Below are positions 9,164 through 32,631 of a stretch of 64,000 bases of DNA, in pieces. The translations under genes and the position numbers were made by a program. The notes beneath the pieces are model-generated. The model did not search any database and was not told where the DNA came from. It saw only the letters and a list, made by a program, of their open reading frames with translations. How positions within the stretch are numbered: the first letter of the stretch is position 1; the number at the start of each line of letters is the position of its first letter. This DNA is from Escherichia phage Esco_phi_B-01. Location: the sequence record OP292222.1; one strand, written 5' to 3'.

Positions 9164-10062
<899 letters not shown>

Positions 10063-12148: not shown

Positions 12149-12222
12149 GGCCCTGTAGCTGGACGGTCAAGCGAGCGACTCATAATCGCTGGATGGTGGT
12201 TCGATTCCACCCAGGGCCACCA
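12149..12222 (+). tRNA. tRNA with CAU anticodon (Met, or Ile if lysidine-modified as in T4 tRNA-Ile)
   Basis: acceptor GGCCCTG/CAGGGCC, anticodon stem AGCGA/TCGCT with loop CTCATAA, T-arm GGTGG-TTCGATT-CCACC, 3' CCA encoded. Confidence 0.8.
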
Positions 12223-12226
12223 ATTT

Positions 12227-12301
12227 GGATGTGTAGCTCAGTGGTAGAGCAGTTGACTGTTAATCAATTGGTCCATGGTTCGAATCCATGCATGTCCGCC
12301 A
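12227..12301 (+). tRNA. tRNA-Asn (GUU)
   Basis: acceptor GGATGTG/CATGTCC with G-U pairs, D-arm TAGCTCAGTGGTAGAGC, anticodon loop CTGTTAA, T-loop TTCGAAT, CCA encoded. Confidence 0.75.
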
Positions 12302-12305
12302 AATA

Positions 12306-12381
12306 CGAGGCATAGCTCAGAAGGAAGAGCAACGGTCTTCTAAACCGTAGGTCGTAGGTTCGATCCCTACTGTCTCGACCA
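12306..12381 (+). tRNA. tRNA-Arg (UCU)
   Basis: acceptor CGAGGCA/TGTCTCG, D-arm TAGCTCAGAAGGAAGAGC, anticodon stem ACGGT/ACCGT with loop CTTCTAA, T-arm GTAGG-TTCGATC-CCTAC, CCA encoded. Confidence 0.8.
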
Positions 12382-24093: not shown

Positions 24094-24304
24094 ATTGACA
24101 ATTGAAGGCTCTGATGAAGCTTTGAAGATGTTTGTTGACTGGTTCCATGAACAAGGCGAACAAGGCTTTATGGAATGTTGGGACGGCGGCCAATGGAATG
24201 GTAAAGAAACTGTTTACCCGACTACGTATATCTCTGTTAGTGGTGGATATGACGGCCTTCGTTTTGTAGAATATGATATTGCATCTGATGAGGAAGTGAA
24301 ATGA
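24086..24304 (+). CDS. hypothetical protein
   Basis: 72 aa, overlapping stops. Confidence 0.45.
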   Translation: MSKLTIEGSDEALKMFVDWFHEQGEQGFMECWDGGQWNGKETVYPTTYISVSGGYDGLRFVEYDIASDEEVK

Positions 24305-24579
24305 TTGAAGATATCAAAGGTTACAAGCCACATACCGACGATAAAATCAGTAAAGTGAATGCCATTAAAGATGCTGAAGTTCGATTAGGCTTAATCTTTA
24401 AAGCATTAGAAGAAGAATACGTTGAAGCCTTTACATGCTCAGGTGTTGATAAAATGAGTGATGAAGAATTCGACCTCACTCATGAACGTCTCGCCCAGAT
24501 TCGTACGGCAATCGAACGCTTGAAAGAAGCTTCTATGTGGGCCTGCCGTTCCGTTTTCCAACCTGAAGAAAAATACTAA
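24301..24579 (+). CDS. hypothetical protein
   Basis: 92 aa. Confidence 0.45.
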   Translation: MIEDIKGYKPHTDDKISKVNAIKDAEVRLGLIFKALEEEYVEAFTCSGVDKMSDEEFDLTHERLAQIRTAIERLKEASMWACRSVFQPEEKY

Positions 24580-24641: not shown

Positions 24642-25100
24642 ATGTCAGAAATTAATTCAGAAGTATTCATCCGCCGCAACAAATTACGTCGTCAGTTCGA
24701 AACCGAATTTCGTGAACTTAACGCGTCCATCAAAAAAGCCGCCATTAAGAGCGGTGTCCCAGCTTTCTTTATTAAGTACTCTAATCACTTGTTGGACCGT
24801 GCTATCCAACGTGAAATTGACGAAAAATATGTTTTCTCTTTGTTCAAGAAGCTCCATAATCATGTTAAAGAAATCCATGAATTTTTAATCCAGGAGCCTC
24901 TTCCTGACGTAGAATCTGAAATTATCCCAGGTAAGGTGTATCGTCCACTGCGTCTCGAGATTACCGATAAAACCTTATGGTTGGGTATGACCGTAGATCG
25001 TAAACATCCTGATAAAGGATATTCATTAAAATGTCGTATGGCATTTGTTAACTCTAAACGTTTAGAAGGTAAAACCAGCACGAAAGTAATCTATCTTTAA
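24642..25100 (+). CDS. hypothetical protein
   Basis: 152 aa. Confidence 0.5.
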   Translation: MSEINSEVFIRRNKLRRQFETEFRELNASIKKAAIKSGVPAFFIKYSNHLLDRAIQREIDEKYVFSLFKKLHNHVKEIHEFLIQEPLPDVESEIIPGKVYRPLRLEITDKTLWLGMTVDRKHPDKGYSLKCRMAFVNSKRLEGKTSTKVIYL

Positions 25101-25112
25101 TAATGAGGTCTC

Positions 25113-25652
25113 ATGAAAAAAGTATTAGCCACTTTACTATTGACAGTTAGTATGTCTGCCTATAGCGTAGAGCCTACTTTCAGTAATGAACAACTCGATA
25201 ATTTACATTATGCGTATGCTTTCGGTGAACAATACCAAAAGTCGGGAAAGTTCAAAGAAAACCCTAATCAAAAAGGATTAGGATATATAATGGCCGGATT
25301 ATTATGGCAGGAATCGTCTGCCGGAATTAATCAAGGTTTAAATAAAGATAAGCACCATGCTTATGGCATGTTCCAAAATTACTTGCCTACGTTAAGAAGT
25401 CGTGTTCAACAGGTAGGTTGGAAGATGTCAGACAAAGAAATAATTCGTATGGTCCAAAAACGACAGAACAGTGCCTCTTGGGCCTACATTGAGCTGTCTT
25501 ATTGGATTAATGTTCACAAAGGTGACCTGAGAAAAGCGATTGCTTCTTATAATGCGGGCTGGAATGTCAAAGCAGGCAGTAAATATGCTTCCGAAGTTCT
25601 AGAAAAGGCCAATTACCTAAAATCTAAAAAGATGTTTGAGGCGGTATATTAA
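25113..25652 (+). CDS. secreted lytic-transglycosylase-like protein (hypothetical)
   Basis: N-terminal signal peptide; WQESSAG and YNAGWN resemble SLT-domain catalytic motifs. Confidence 0.45.
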   Translation: MKKVLATLLLTVSMSAYSVEPTFSNEQLDNLHYAYAFGEQYQKSGKFKENPNQKGLGYIMAGLLWQESSAGINQGLNKDKHHAYGMFQNYLPTLRSRVQQVGWKMSDKEIIRMVQKRQNSASWAYIELSYWINVHKGDLRKAIASYNAGWNVKAGSKYASEVLEKANYLKSKKMFEAVY

Positions 25653-26009
25653 ATGATTAAACAGATGACTATAGCGCTTATGTTGATTGCTCCGGGAGTA
25701 TTAGCATCACAGGTTGATGATACAAATAATTCAATTGTCGAGTATGCCACCCGTACAGCAAAAGATTATTGTCATCCGAGTAATACTGAATGTGTTATTG
25801 AATTCAGTTCAAAAATAACAGCTGCTTTTAAAGATGGACAGAACGACGTCGAGCATCGCCGAATGAAAGAGAAAACTCTTTCTAAAAGATACGAGCAACG
25901 TCTAAACGTTACTGAATGTGTTCCGTCTGATAAAAAGTACAAAGAAATGTGCGCGTCTATGGTAGACAGACTCGTTGACTCTTACAACCGAGGGCTAAAC
26001 TCTAAATGA
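25653..26009 (+). CDS. secreted Cys-containing protein (hypothetical)
   Basis: signal peptide MIKQMTIALMLIAPGVLAS; 118 aa. Confidence 0.45.
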   Translation: MIKQMTIALMLIAPGVLASQVDDTNNSIVEYATRTAKDYCHPSNTECVIEFSSKITAAFKDGQNDVEHRRMKEKTLSKRYEQRLNVTECVPSDKKYKEMCASMVDRLVDSYNRGLNSK

Positions 26010-26485
26010 TTATTGATTATATTAAGGGCGATATCGTCGCCCTGTTTCTTCAAGGTAATATTATTGCACACGGGTGCAACTGTTTTCATACTATGGGTTC
26101 AGGTGTTGCCGGTCAATTAGCAAGGGCCTATCCTAAAATATTAGAAATTGATAAGACCACTACTGAATACGGTTCTCGTGATAAATTAGGCGACATGTCT
26201 ATTGTTTTTAAACATAAGCCTAATGGATTTGCAATGTGCTATAATTTATACACCCAATACGAACCAGGCCCTAATCTTGATTACGGTGCTTTAGTAAACT
26301 GTATGATAGAATTAAATCTACAAGCAAACGACCTTTTGTTTAAACCAAGAATTTATATTCCTCGTATAGGTTGTGGTATTGCTGGCGGTGATTGGGACAA
26401 GGTTTCTAAATTAATCGACATGTTTACTCCTGATATTGATTTAATAGTGGTGGATTATGAAAGCACATTACCCACATCCGTTTGA
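26006..26485 (+). CDS. macrodomain-like protein (predicted ADP-ribose binding/processing)
   Basis: GNIIAHGCNCFHTMGSGVAGQLARAYP resembles the macrodomain N-C-x-x-x-M-G-x-G-[IV]-A signature; later GCGIAGGDW. Confidence 0.5.
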   Translation: MIIDYIKGDIVALFLQGNIIAHGCNCFHTMGSGVAGQLARAYPKILEIDKTTTEYGSRDKLGDMSIVFKHKPNGFAMCYNLYTQYEPGPNLDYGALVNCMIELNLQANDLLFKPRIYIPRIGCGIAGGDWDKVSKLIDMFTPDIDLIVVDYESTLPTSV

Positions 26486-26669
26486 CCCTAAAAACAAAGC
26501 GGAAATTATTCGGCACTGGACCGAAACCCGAGTAACTAAATGCCCTATAAAAAGTCAGCATAACACCGATAAATGGTATATTGGTGAATACGTTGAATAT
26601 ACTTTTATAGATAAAAATAAACGTAAACAGCATGTAGAAGAATATTGCTTAAAGGTGCAATGGTTATGA
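26457..26669 (+). CDS. hypothetical protein
   Basis: 70 aa. Confidence 0.4.
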   Translation: MKAHYPHPFDPKNKAEIIRHWTETRVTKCPIKSQHNTDKWYIGEYVEYTFIDKNKRKQHVEEYCLKVQWL

Positions 26670-26872
26670 GCCAAGCCCGAATTCTTAAAACGGCCAAATG
26701 TGAAAAATGCGAATGGCCAGTAATAGCCGCTTTATGCAACGATGAAATGGAATGTGAATTTGATTACTGGTGGTACTGTTCTAATAAAGGATGTTCTAAT
26801 CATAAGGGTGAAGGTTTTCATTCCGGTTATTGCGAACATCCTAAATTTGTGCGATATGGGGAACCCAAATGA
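26666..26872 (+). CDS. Cys-rich small protein (possible zinc binding)
   Basis: CEKCEWP...CNDEMECEF...CSNKGCSNH...CEHP; ATGA overlap. Confidence 0.45.
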   Translation: MSQARILKTAKCEKCEWPVIAALCNDEMECEFDYWWYCSNKGCSNHKGEGFHSGYCEHPKFVRYGEPK

Positions 26873-27042
26873 GTTTGAGTAAAGAACAGAAAGACAAATT
26901 GTTTGAGCTTATCCATGAGCTCATGGAACTTAATATAGAATGTGAATTTGATAACTCTCTGGACTGGGATTGGAGAGGTGACGAAGAGGATGAGTTTTCT
27001 AAAAAGGAAAACGAATTAATAGCTTATGTGAATACGCTTTAA
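26869..27042 (+). CDS. hypothetical small acidic protein
   Basis: 57 aa ORF below the track cutoff; ATGA overlap with upstream stop. Confidence 0.35.
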   Translation: MSLSKEQKDKLFELIHELMELNIECEFDNSLDWDWRGDEEDEFSKKENELIAYVNTL

Positions 27043-27051
27043 GAAGGTAAT

Positions 27052-27624
27052 ATGGCTCAACTTTATTTTCATTATGCGGCAATGAACTCAGGTAAGACCG
27101 CTTCATTGCTAACGGCCGCTCATAACTACAAAGAACGCGGTATGGGCGTGCTCCTTTTAAAGCCTGCGATAGACAATAGAGAATCAAGCCATACCATTTC
27201 GTCTCGTATAGGGATTAGTCAAGAGGCTAATGCAGTGACTCCGGATATGGACCTATACGAGTTCTATCGTTGGGCTGAATCTCAAAAAGATATCCACTGT
27301 GTGTTTGTGGATGAAGCCCAGTTCTTAGAACCTGCACAGATAAAACAACTGGCAAAGATAGTAGACAATTATAATGTTCCGGTTATGTGTTACGGGCTAA
27401 GAACTGATTTTCAGGGTAAACTGTTTCCTGGTTCTGCTGAATTACTCGCTACGGCAGATAAACTCGTTGAGTACAAAGGTGTGTGCCATTGCGGCCGTAA
27501 AGCTACTATGACTGCTAGGGTCCAAGATGGTGTCGCAATTAAGGACGGAGCCCAAGTTTCTATAGGTGGCAACGATTCTTACGTGTCATTGTGCAGGAAG
27601 CACTGGATAGAAATAACGAGTTGA
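27052..27624 (+). CDS. tk: thymidine kinase
   Basis: MAQLYFHYAAMNSGKTASLL P-loop; C-terminal CHCGRKAT...SLCRKHW zinc site typical of type II thymidine kinases. Confidence 0.9.
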   Translation: MAQLYFHYAAMNSGKTASLLTAAHNYKERGMGVLLLKPAIDNRESSHTISSRIGISQEANAVTPDMDLYEFYRWAESQKDIHCVFVDEAQFLEPAQIKQLAKIVDNYNVPVMCYGLRTDFQGKLFPGSAELLATADKLVEYKGVCHCGRKATMTARVQDGVAIKDGAQVSIGGNDSYVSLCRKHWIEITS

Positions 27625-27631
27625 GGGTACT

Positions 27632-27910
27632 ATGGACCTAAATTCAAAGATTTTAATTCTAGCGTTCGCTGTGGCCATCTCTTATATTGTTCTTTCGCCC
27701 ATCATGGATGATGCGGCTTACAAAAGAGAGATAGAAGTTGTAGCAGCGACGTATAATGCTAATAATAAAGAATGTCCTAATAAAAATGGAGTGGATTTAA
27801 TTAAAGCACATTATATGCTTTCTATTACCTCGCCTATACAGAGGAATTGGGTTGAATATAATTTTAACGACGTGTTCTATTCTTATTGTCGTAAGCTTAA
27901 AAAGCTATAA
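27632..27910 (+). CDS. hypothetical membrane-anchored protein
   Basis: N-terminal TM helix; 92 aa. Confidence 0.45.
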   Translation: MDLNSKILILAFAVAISYIVLSPIMDDAAYKREIEVVAATYNANNKECPNKNGVDLIKAHYMLSITSPIQRNWVEYNFNDVFYSYCRKLKKL

Positions 27911-28003
27911 ATAGTAATACTAACCGTAGAGCTTTAGCTTTTGGTAATCGCTATCGGTTAAGGCCGAAAGGCAAATTCGTATAAAATAACAAAGGACTTT
28001 TGT

Positions 28004-30074: not shown

Positions 30075-30527
30075 ATGATTATCAATTCAAACTCTTGGCA
30101 CGTTAAATTACACGACCGTTTTTACGACCGTCATTCTCGACCACACTCTTTGTGTGCTTATTTCTGGAAAATGGTTTGGGCTTGTTTTGCTTGTGCAGTT
30201 GTTGCAGGTAGTACGCTTTTTGGATTAACTGTTGCAGGAGCTGGTGTATTAGAGCATTTCTTTGTATTAAGTACTCCCGTTCTGTTGAGCCTCGGGTTTG
30301 TTTTAGGGTTGACTGCAATAGCTCTTATTATTGCGCTATCCATCGGTTTGGCATTCGGTGCGATGAATTTACACGCATGGTATGATGCCCGTAAAGAAGA
30401 AAAGGAATGGGAACGAATTAAAGCTAAACGTGAAGGAAAGGAAATTAAAGAAAATATAGTCGTCCAATACATTAAAGCTCGTAAATCTAAGATGTGTCCT
30501 GTAATTCACTTCGAGAACAAAGAATGA
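30075..30527 (+). CDS. hypothetical membrane protein
   Basis: 150 aa; three predicted TM helices. Confidence 0.5.
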   Translation: MIINSNSWHVKLHDRFYDRHSRPHSLCAYFWKMVWACFACAVVAGSTLFGLTVAGAGVLEHFFVLSTPVLLSLGFVLGLTAIALIIALSIGLAFGAMNLHAWYDARKEEKEWERIKAKREGKEIKENIVVQYIKARKSKMCPVIHFENKE

Positions 30528-31534
30528 GAACAGTTATGAAAGGCTACTTCGGTAGCCATCTTTATGGAACAAGTACTCCGGAATCCGATGTCGATTTTAA
30601 AGAAATCTTTGTTCCACATCCGCGTGATATTCTGTTAGGTACGGCAATGAACCATACCAACCTGAACACGAATAACACTGCTTCCAAAAACACTAAAGAT
30701 GATGTTGACCATGAGCTTTACAGCCTGAAATATTTCTTTAAACTGGCTGCTGAAGGCGAAACCGTTGCTCTGGATATGCTCCACACTCCACCTGAACTAG
30801 TGGTTAAATCTGATTTACCTGATGTATGGAAATTTATCCAAGATAACCGTTCACGTTTCTATACAACTAACATGAAAGCCTATTTAGGGTACGTCCGTAA
30901 GCAAGCTTCTAAATATGGTGTTAAGGGTTCTCGATTGGCTGCTCTGCGTGGTGTACTGGCAATTGTTAACCAGATTCCTGAACAGTGGGTCGATTATCAA
31001 GAAGGCATTCCAGATCGTTTACGTCGGACTAAGGTAGAAGATATCAAGCACAGGCTCCCTGAAAACGAGTTTTGCGAATGGGTATTTCATAACCATGAGA
31101 AAACAGGTCCTCAAACGTTCTATACTGTCCTCGGACGTAAGTACCAAACTACTTTGTCATTGGTCGAGCTTAAGCAATCTCTGAATAAACTCGATGCCGA
31201 ATATGGCGAACGTGCTCGTAAGGCTGAAGCCAATGAAGGTATTGACTGGAAAGCTCTGAGCCATGCTTATCGTGCCGGGTACCAATTGATGGAAATCTAC
31301 CAAACTGGTGACTTGGTATTCCCATTGCGTGAAGCCTCTATCATTAAGCTGATTAAAGCTGGTGAATTACCATTTAAAGAAGTTCAAGAACTTCTTGAAG
31401 ATACTGTCGATTTAGTTGAAGTTCTGGCCATCCAGGCAGCTAAGAATGGTATGCCTGCGAAGGTGGACATGAAGTTCTGGGACAAGTTCGTCGAAGAGGT
31501 GTACCTTGACAACCACAACTCTTATTACCGTTAA
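30524..31534 (+). CDS. predicted nucleotidyltransferase (Pol-beta superfamily); alternative start 30536
   Basis: N-terminal YFGSHLYGTSTPESDVDF fits hG[GS]...[DE]h[DE]h; followed by terminator and PeSL. Confidence 0.55.
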   Translation: MRTVMKGYFGSHLYGTSTPESDVDFKEIFVPHPRDILLGTAMNHTNLNTNNTASKNTKDDVDHELYSLKYFFKLAAEGETVALDMLHTPPELVVKSDLPDVWKFIQDNRSRFYTTNMKAYLGYVRKQASKYGVKGSRLAALRGVLAIVNQIPEQWVDYQEGIPDRLRRTKVEDIKHRLPENEFCEWVFHNHEKTGPQTFYTVLGRKYQTTLSLVELKQSLNKLDAEYGERARKAEANEGIDWKALSHAYRAGYQLMEIYQTGDLVFPLREASIIKLIKAGELPFKEVQELLEDTVDLVEVLAIQAAKNGMPAKVDMKFWDKFVEEVYLDNHNSYYR

Positions 31535-31542
31535 CTAAATTT

Positions 31543-31566
31543 AGGACCCTTCGGGGTCCTTTTTTG
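31543..31566 (+). terminator. rho-independent terminator
   Basis: GGACCC-TTCG-GGGTCC plus TTTTTT. Confidence 0.7.
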
Positions 31567-31584
31567 GGTTTAGTGCAAAAAAGA

Positions 31585-31640
31585 GTTTACACTCTCGTAG
31601 AGCATGTTATTATGGACCTATCAAATCTACTGAGTGAAAC
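31585..31640 (+). promoter_or_regulatory. PeSL-like early promoter
   Basis: GTTTAC 31585-31590, 17-nt spacer, TATTAT 31608-31613, CTATCAAATCTACTGAG. Confidence 0.55.
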
Positions 31641-31650
31641 GGAGAATATA

Positions 31651-32631
31651 ATGTTAACTATCAAAATCAACAAAGGTATCTATCGCGGTAATGAAATCTC
31701 TGGTACGTTCATGAGTTCAGGTAAAACCTGGTTCCCTAATAAAATTCATGAATCCGAAGCTCATCTCGGTGATGGCAAGGTATTTGTACAGATTGATGGT
31801 GTTGAACGTGGTGTGTGGGTGTTCAAATGCGACATCGAAATGGAAGGTGCTGAAGCTCATGCAATGGTTACTGAATCCTCTGAAGAAATGAAACATCGCA
31901 TCAACAAACGTTTTAAAGTAATGAACATGATGACTAACGGAATCATCGATGGTAAAATTCGTTCCCTTATCATCTCTGGTGCCGCAGGTATTGGTAAAAC
32001 GTATTCTTTGGATAAAGCATTACAAAATGCCCACGAAAATGAAACTATCGAATATAAATCAATCAACGGAAAGATTAGTGGAATCGGTCTTTACGAGCAG
32101 CTTTGGAATAACCGCGGCCCTAATAGTGTTCTTCTTATTGATGATGTTGATGTATTCTCTGACATGGATATCCTGAACCTTCTGAAAGCCGCATTGGATA
32201 CCGGTGAGAAACGTAAGGTGTGCTGGAGCACTTCAAGTTCTTATCTCGATGATAAAAATATCGATAAAGAATTCGAATACGAAGGCACCATCGTGTTCAT
32301 CACCAACGTTGATATTGACCGTGAATTAGAGCGTGGAACTAAACTTGCTCCACACCTCCAAGCTTTAGTATCTCGTTCAGTTTACTTAGACCTCGGAGTT
32401 CACTCGAATGAAGAGATTATGGTTCGTGTTGAAGACGTTATCCTGTCCACTGATATGATGCAAAACCGAGGTCTGACTGATGCTGAGACTTATCAAGCTC
32501 TAGCATGGATGAAGGCCAATGTATCTCGTCTTCGTAACGTATCATTACGCACGGCTCTTTACCTGGCGGACTTCATTGCCACCGATAAAAATGACTGGAG
32601 CGAAATCGCTGAAGTTACACTTCTGAAATAA
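31651..32631 (+). CDS. AAA-type P-loop ATPase (hypothetical)
   Basis: Walker A GAAGIGKT, Walker B VLLIDDVD; ATG after GGAGAATATA. Confidence 0.6.
   Translation: MLTIKINKGIYRGNEISGTFMSSGKTWFPNKIHESEAHLGDGKVFVQIDGVERGVWVFKCDIEMEGAEAHAMVTESSEEMKHRINKRFKVMNMMTNGIIDGKIRSLIISGAAGIGKTYSLDKALQNAHENETIEYKSINGKISGIGLYEQLWNNRGPNSVLLIDDVDVFSDMDILNLLKAALDTGEKRKVCWSTSSSYLDDKNIDKEFEYEGTIVFITNVDIDRELERGTKLAPHLQALVSRSVYLDLGVHSNEEIMVRVEDVILSTDMMQNRGLTDAETYQALAWMKANVSRLRNVSLRTALYLADFIATDKNDWSEIAEVTLLK

Follow-up and report, generated by a model that had tools for sequence, protein, structure and literature searches.

DarTG systems block phage DNA replication through ADP-ribosylation of DNA, and the phage-encoded erasers of this modification determine the infection of DarTG-carrying strains. 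The closest described case is that of tk.4 in phage T4, for which a saturated transposon library (HIDEN-SEQ) was challenged with E. coli expressing DarTG2 (bioRxiv preprint of November 2025; 10.1101/2025.11.20.689424). As given in the preprint's section on tk.4, this was the single conditionally essential T4 gene on the DarTG2 host and was non-essential without DarTG2, clean removal of tk.4 made T4 more sensitive to DarTG2, and the gene was renamed adfM (anti-DarT factor Macrodomain); in the wording of the same section, removal of ADP-ribose from DNA by AdfM "seems likely", the support being genetic (10.1101/2025.11.20.689424). The chemistry itself has been demonstrated for two other macrodomains. 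Gp104 of PhiKZ (a chimallivirus), a DarG2-like antitoxin that is also called AdfM, is imported into the phage nucleus, frees an oligonucleotide of thymidine-linked ADP-ribose in vitro, rescues DarT2 toxicity, and is required on DarTG2 hosts (PMC13309987). SCO6735 of Streptomyces coelicolor is without Lys84 and Asp125 of TARG1 and without Lys80 of DarG, the equivalent residue being Gln85; it takes ADP-ribose off thymidines in DNA and gives protection against DarT, its activity was abolished in Q85A or Q85E, and a water-mediated mechanism was proposed in which the Gln positions the distal ribose (PMC9411070). As to the activity of SCO6735 on phosphate-linked ADP-ribose, the results and the discussion of another paper (PMC11833690) are inconsistent, and the point was not relied on. 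T-even phages also carry AdfN (gp30.3, NADAR), which counters the guanosine-modifying DarTG1 (PMC11825919). AdfB of ICP1 was considered as a related phage macrodomain and was dropped, as the paper on it describes a DarT-binding antitoxin mimic and uses the term macrodomain for DarG only (PMC11481870).

In the window (the whole stretch of 64,000 nucleotides that was analysed; all coordinates refer to it, and every feature given is on the + strand), an ORF with an ATG start at 26006..26485 encodes a single-domain protein of 159 amino acids, which the sequence-only reading had called a phage-encoded, macrodomain-like protein. The region 25000-28000 was 98% identical to that of Escherichia phages dhaeg, MN04, and JS98 (Tevenvirinae, genus Dhakavirus); the window is on this similarity assigned to a JS98-like (Dhakavirus) T-even phage, which bears out the phage origin of the protein. 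The gene is annotated in JS98 as tk.4, "phosphatase; contains A1pp phosphatase motif", and is named "macro domain protein" in other public records. The encoded protein (window Tk.4) and T4 Tk.4 (155 amino acids) were 56% identical with 74% positives in a gapless, full-length alignment (E=8e-69). Both genes are located between vs and tk.3, and the gene order regB-vs.1-vs-tk.4-tk.3-...-tk-rI is common to the window, T2, T4, and JS98. Judging from identity and synteny together, the ORF is the Dhakavirus ortholog of tk.4/adfM of T4 (genus Tequatrovirus), from which it differs in 44% of the residues, including GCGIAGG in place of GAGIGKG in loop 2 (see below). Relatives were detected by tblastn in 2,769 of 50,697 phage records, including those of T4-like, rV5-like, FelixO1-like, Vi1-like, and Pakpunavirus-like phages and of large Vibrio phages. 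The phage gene tk.4 is thus old and widely distributed, and it had been named before; the anti-DarTG2 role was already known for the T4 ortholog, and the gene was already annotated in the closest public genomes.

The upstream synteny anchor is vs (valyl-tRNA synthetase modifier; 25653..26009), whose TGA stop codon overlaps the ATG of tk.4 (ATGA at 26006-26009), and this overlap of start and stop suggests that translation of tk.4 may be coupled to that of vs. A GAGGG sequence resembling an RBS (25990..25994, read from the sequence) is located 11 nt upstream of the ATG, and the same arrangement of GAGGG and ATGA is present in T4 and JS98. The 3' end of tk.4 overlaps the tk.3 ORF (DUF7202; 26457..26669) by 29 nt, and tk (thymidine kinase; 27052..27624; Pfam TK, E=5.5e-57) is the downstream synteny anchor; such tight packing around tk.4 is typical for the T-even early-gene block. 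Between tk.4 and tk (26457..27042), three small ORFs were assigned to DUF7202 (tk.3), Phage_zn_bind (PF23895), and DUF7438, which are recently defined families without known function. A promoter/terminator scan of the region 24-28 kb yielded 14 promoter-like sites against 13.9 expected from shuffled sequence, that is, no difference. A GC-rich 8-bp hairpin (AGGGCGAT-ATC-GTCGCCCT; 26025..26043; about -13 kcal/mol) was found inside codons 7-13 of tk.4 and was considered as a functional element; T4 has retained it despite the 56% protein identity, the one difference lying in the loop. However, it was absent from the orthologs of four T-even genera (Karamvirus, Jiaodavirus, Mosugukvirus, and Biquartavirus), in which similar amino acids are kept; the candidate was dropped for this reason, and a general regulatory role of the hairpin is improbable.

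With respect to family membership, Pfam PF01661 (Macro) matched window Tk.4 with 33.8 bits (E=3.7e-8; profile positions 2-117 of 118), which is above the curated gathering threshold of 22 bits, and PHROG 335 matched with E=1.6e-70. The search of PDB sequences with Tk.4 alone gave Poa1p (yeast, 6LFU), BT1257 (Bacteroides, 2AFC/2FG1), SCO6735 (5E3B), DarG (Mycobacterium tuberculosis, 5M3I), and TARG1 (human). When a profile of 69 homologs was used, these matches were strengthened to E=4e-19 through 5e-10, with higher scores for BT1257 (72 bits), TARG1 (66 bits), and SCO6735 (61 bits) than for the DarG proteins (49, 43, and 31 bits). The AlphaFold2 model, which was built from the alignment of the 69 homologs, had a pLDDT of 94.2 and a pTM of 0.89 with disorder in the last three residues only, and it predicted the three-layer alpha/beta/alpha macro fold. 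The best Foldseek matches of the model were TARG1, BT1257, Poa1p, and DarG, human TARG1/OARD1 (4J5R) being at the top (E 1e-9, TM 0.72-0.81; family profile E 4.6e-17). The motifs of the predicted ADP-ribose pocket, D9, G31-S-G-V-A35, and P119-R-I-G-C-G124, were all present in the alignments. On the profile scores and the modelled fold, window Tk.4 is assigned to the Macro domain family, and the macrodomain-like character that had been read from the letters was thus confirmed both by the HMM search and by structure prediction and comparison with TARG1. The PDB, profile, and Foldseek matches therefore place it in the ALC1/TARG1/DarG/Poa1p-like class and not in the MacroD class. The earlier interpretation was supported, with a reservation as to the TARG1/MacroD type: the macrodomain and the TARG1-like fold were upheld, whereas the protein is not of the MacroD type, and both catalytic residues of TARG1 are missing (Q84 and A126 in Tk.4).

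For the comparison of active-site residues, window and T4 Tk.4 were aligned with the characterised enzymes by HMMER and MAFFT, and conservation was evaluated over the 69 homologs, with identities as low as 38%. The Asp of the KGD motif, D9 (codon at 26030..26032), which we take to be the adenine-contacting Asp typical of macrodomains, was invariant in the alignments of the window, T4, SCO6735, BT1257, DarG, TARG1, and PhiKZ gp104. Residues 17-43 of window Tk.4 are GNIIAHGCNCFHTMGSGVAGQLARAYP; within them, residues 22-35 (HGCNCFHTMGSGVA; 26069..26110) would comprise the putative catalytic loop (H22, N25) and the G-x-G-V-A phosphate-binding loop 1, and H22, G23, N25, C26, G33, and A35 were invariant in the 69 homologs. 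H22 and N25 align with H24 and N27 of SCO6735, and N25 aligns also with N23 of PhiKZ AdfM and with the second Asn of VNTVNC in DarG, which is DarG N22 going by the N23-M28 deletion in PhiKZ (PMC13309987). The codon CAA of Q84 (26255..26257) is in the column of DarG K80, TARG1 K84, PhiKZ AdfM K78, and SCO6735 Gln85. Q84 was likewise invariant in the homologs, and T4 Tk.4 has the identical H22, N25, and Q84. Residues 119-128 (PRIGCGIAGG; 26360..26389) correspond to the phosphate-binding loop 2 and align to PRIGCGLDRL of TARG1. P119, G122, and G124 were invariant, and A126 is in the column of TARG1 D125, where SCO6735 has Ala as well. The SCO6735-type pattern, that is, Gln at the position of DarG K80/TARG1 K84 together with the H-x-x-N loop and without the Asp of TARG1, is therefore found in Tk.4, and by this pattern the protein is assigned to the lysine-independent SCO6735-type subgroup of the ALC1-like macrodomain hydrolases. 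A TARG1-type mechanism was rejected, the K84/D125 catalytic dyad being replaced by Q84 and A126.

Considering these data together, it is likely in our judgement that window Tk.4 acts as an early, orphan antitoxin-like hydrolase, which strips the thymidine-ADP-ribose made by DarT2 from single-stranded phage DNA by means of a SCO6735-type H/N/Q site. In the proposed mechanism, DarT2 of the host DarTG2 ADP-ribosylates thymidines in single-stranded phage DNA, by which replication is blocked. Tk.4, an orphan antitoxin-like macrodomain presumed to be made early in infection, would bind the ADP-ribose moiety in the pocket of D9, the G31-A35 loop, and the P119-G128 loop, and would hydrolyse the thymidine-ribose bond so that replicable DNA is restored. 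The active site used would be of the lysine-independent SCO6735 type (H22, N25, Q84), unlike the Lys type of DarG, TARG1, and PhiKZ AdfM. The proposal that a phage macrodomain might reverse host ADP-ribosylation such as that by DarT agrees well with the T4 genetics, in which, according to the tk.4 section of the preprint, the gene was needed on the DarTG2 host and its deletion sensitised the phage (10.1101/2025.11.20.689424). We infer both the transfer of this role to the 56%-identical window allele and enzymatic removal as the mechanism. Activity of Tk.4 would not be expected from its likeness to DarG by itself, because the catalytic Lys of DarG is absent, and the argument rests instead on SCO6735; since SCO6735 is active with Gln85 and no Lys, the missing DarG Lys is no argument against DNA de-ADP-ribosylation by Tk.4. 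As a counterpoint, the surface lysines K34 and K89 of SCO6735 (mutated in PMC9411070) correspond to S32 and G88 in window Tk.4. With Gln in place of the catalytic Lys of DarG, T-even Tk.4 is well suited to testing the mechanism without Lys that was put forward for SCO6735.

Tk.4 may act by more than hydrolysis, because SCO6735 that has lost its catalytic activity can still inhibit DarT through interaction: the inactive forms of SCO6735 (Q85A), DarG (K80A), and TARG1 (K84A) all inhibited DarT in vitro, SCO6735 being the strongest (PMC9411070), and ICP1 AdfB counters DarT apparently by direct interaction (PMC11481870). That Tk.4 would neutralise DarT2 mainly by stoichiometric binding of the toxin, with hydrolysis dispensable, is nevertheless unlikely in view of its sequence conservation and its size. 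No variation was seen among the homologs at H22, N25, or Q84 or in either phosphate loop, a pattern that fits an enzyme, whereas in a binder one would look for changes that track individual DarT2 variants, and Tk.4 is without the C-terminal DarT-binding domain of DarG, aligning to positions 1-142 of a 338-position DarG model. The name "phosphatase" would make Tk.4 an enzyme acting on small molecules, with either ADP-ribose-1''-phosphate phosphatase activity like that of Poa1p or O-acetyl-ADP-ribose deacetylase activity. However, "A1pp" is an old domain name of Macro, so that the annotation is a transfer of the label; the match with Poa1p splits into two stretches, between which the central part including the region of Q84 was not confidently aligned; and we know of no source of Appr-1''-p in T4-infected E. 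coli. As the genetic phenotype in T4 is, in the tk.4 section of the preprint, specific to DarTG2 (10.1101/2025.11.20.689424), we regard a small-molecule function as quite improbable.

Tk.4 might also remove Asp/Glu-linked ADP-ribose from proteins, and thereby reverse ADP-ribosyltransferase (ART) defences of the host or tune the modifications made by Alt, ModA, and ModB of the phage. T-even phages do deploy ADP-ribosyltransferases, and the sequence-only reading had pointed to their use on host proteins by T4-like phages, but Alt, ModA, and ModB modify arginine, and this linkage is cleaved by ARH-type enzymes and is not a substrate of macrodomains, which makes a link with Alt/Mod unlikely. Activity of TARG1 and SCO6735 on automodified PARP1 E988Q (PMC9411070) speaks for action on proteins, whereas in the tk.4 section of the preprint no phenotype of this kind is reported, tk.4 being non-essential without DarTG2 (10.1101/2025.11.20.689424); on balance, we think a protein substrate of this type very unlikely to explain the gene. 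As for the degradation or sequestration of ADPR-derived immune signals, e.g., gcADPR of Thoeris, which had been put forward from the sequence too, no experimental or comparative evidence was found, the closest relatives by structure are glycohydrolases whose substrate is ADP-ribose on macromolecules, and the match with ThsA was well below the ALC1-like group. Such a function is to be considered extremely unlikely.

Several other genes of the window were noted in the course of the analysis. Immediately before regB, an ORF of 92 amino acids (24301..24579) is orthologous to T4 Vs.4 (66% identity) and matches the Acb2/Tad1 hairpin domain of Pfam (PF24729; E=4.7e-16; 59 bits, cut-off 27). Its product, encoded 1.4 kb upstream of tk.4, is probably a sponge for cyclic nucleotides that counters CBASS. 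T4 vs.3 has no counterpart at this position in the window. The 151-amino-acid ORF at 9401..9856, which is gene 57B, matches Pfam PF23474 (Acb1, anti-CBASS phosphodiesterase; E=8.8e-59), and is labelled "RNA ligase" by RefSeq in JS98. Accordingly counted by their predicted products, at least three candidate anti-defence genes would be carried in the window, namely tk.4, Acb2/vs.4, and Acb1/57B. Three tRNA genes (Met-CAT, Asn-GTT, and Arg-TCT) are located at 12149..12381, the same set being annotated in JS98. The 355-amino-acid ORF at the nrdC.10 position (31564..32631) had sub-threshold P-loop/STAND-NTPase-like Pfam matches only, and is adjoined by an ORF for a 346-amino-acid RlaP-family nucleotidyltransferase (nrdC.11; 30494..31534). 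With regard to tk.4, a Dhakavirus appears to carry the same anti-DarTG2 factor as T4, in an early-gene block with Acb2/vs.4, and this is nothing new in kind. The effect of such erasers on the infection of DarTG-carrying strains matters when the host range of therapeutic T-even phages, the JS98 group among them, is to be predicted.

Two phage macrodomains that are not orthologous, PhiKZ gp104 (PMC13309987) and T4 Tk.4 (10.1101/2025.11.20.689424), were independently named AdfM, and the name now spans both. PMC13309987 makes no mention of tk.4, and the difference in lineage between the two proteins is absent from the tk.4 section of the HIDEN-SEQ preprint (10.1101/2025.11.20.689424). PhiKZ gp104 (region compared, L006:12518-13006) resembles Tk.4 in being a phage-encoded single macrodomain that counters DarTG2; however, the identity to window Tk.4 was about 22% (pairwise BLAST E=0.001), and gp104 is of the DarG-like Lys type (K78), whereas Tk.4 is of the SCO6735-like Gln type. 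The homolog of Tk.4 in Pelagimonas (P0080) is an orphan, as is SCO6735: no darT was found beside it, the genes around it being unrelated, and as a single case it says little on the origin. From the low similarity, the Lys or Gln type, the profile ranking, and the orphan Pelagimonas homolog, independent recruitment of different macrodomain lineages by the two groups of phages is therefore suggested, not proved. A fuller scenario can be put forward tentatively, at somewhat less than even confidence: Tk.4 would belong to the Gln-type SCO6735/BT1257 lineage and not to the Lys-type DarG2 lineage of PhiKZ AdfM, phages would have recruited both independently against DarT2, and the T-even enzyme would derive from an orphan cellular macrodomain for the repair of DNA ADP-ribosylation, instead of from a DarG antitoxin taken over by the phage. 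If this is true, the T-even enzyme might act on more kinds of substrate than DarG and accept, e.g., Asp/Glu-linked ADP-ribose on proteins, as SCO6735 does. The lineage split of the two AdfM proteins is the one modestly new element.

Among the other known systems, T4 AdfN (gp30.3) is similar to Tk.4 as an orphan antitoxin-like ADP-ribosylglycohydrolase carried by T-even phages, but it has the unrelated NADAR fold and acts on the guanosine-ADP-ribose from DarT1. Tk.4 was also tested as a DarG proper and rejected: it scored 27.8 bits with NCBIfam NF048014 (DarG2; cut-off 250) over positions 1-142 of 338 only, and 28.1 bits with the DarG model of PADLOC over positions 2-144 of 329 only, both far below the cut-off and limited to the macrodomain part, and it has neither the catalytic Lys nor the C-terminal domain nor a darT neighbour. 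The DarG2 macrodomain (Thermus aquaticus, 5M31; M. tuberculosis, 5M3I) has Lys80 in the place of Gln84 of Tk.4, and DarG2 possesses a C-terminal DarT-binding domain and is encoded beside darT, whereas Tk.4 is a single domain with vs and tk.3 as neighbours. SCO6735 and BT1257 are cellular and not phage proteins, with about 27-29% identity to Tk.4, and their Gln motif is N-M-I-G-Q (N-M-I-G-Q-H-G) as compared with N-L-Y-T-Q in Tk.4. Window Tk.4 would work like the DarG macrodomain but with the catalytic residues of SCO6735.
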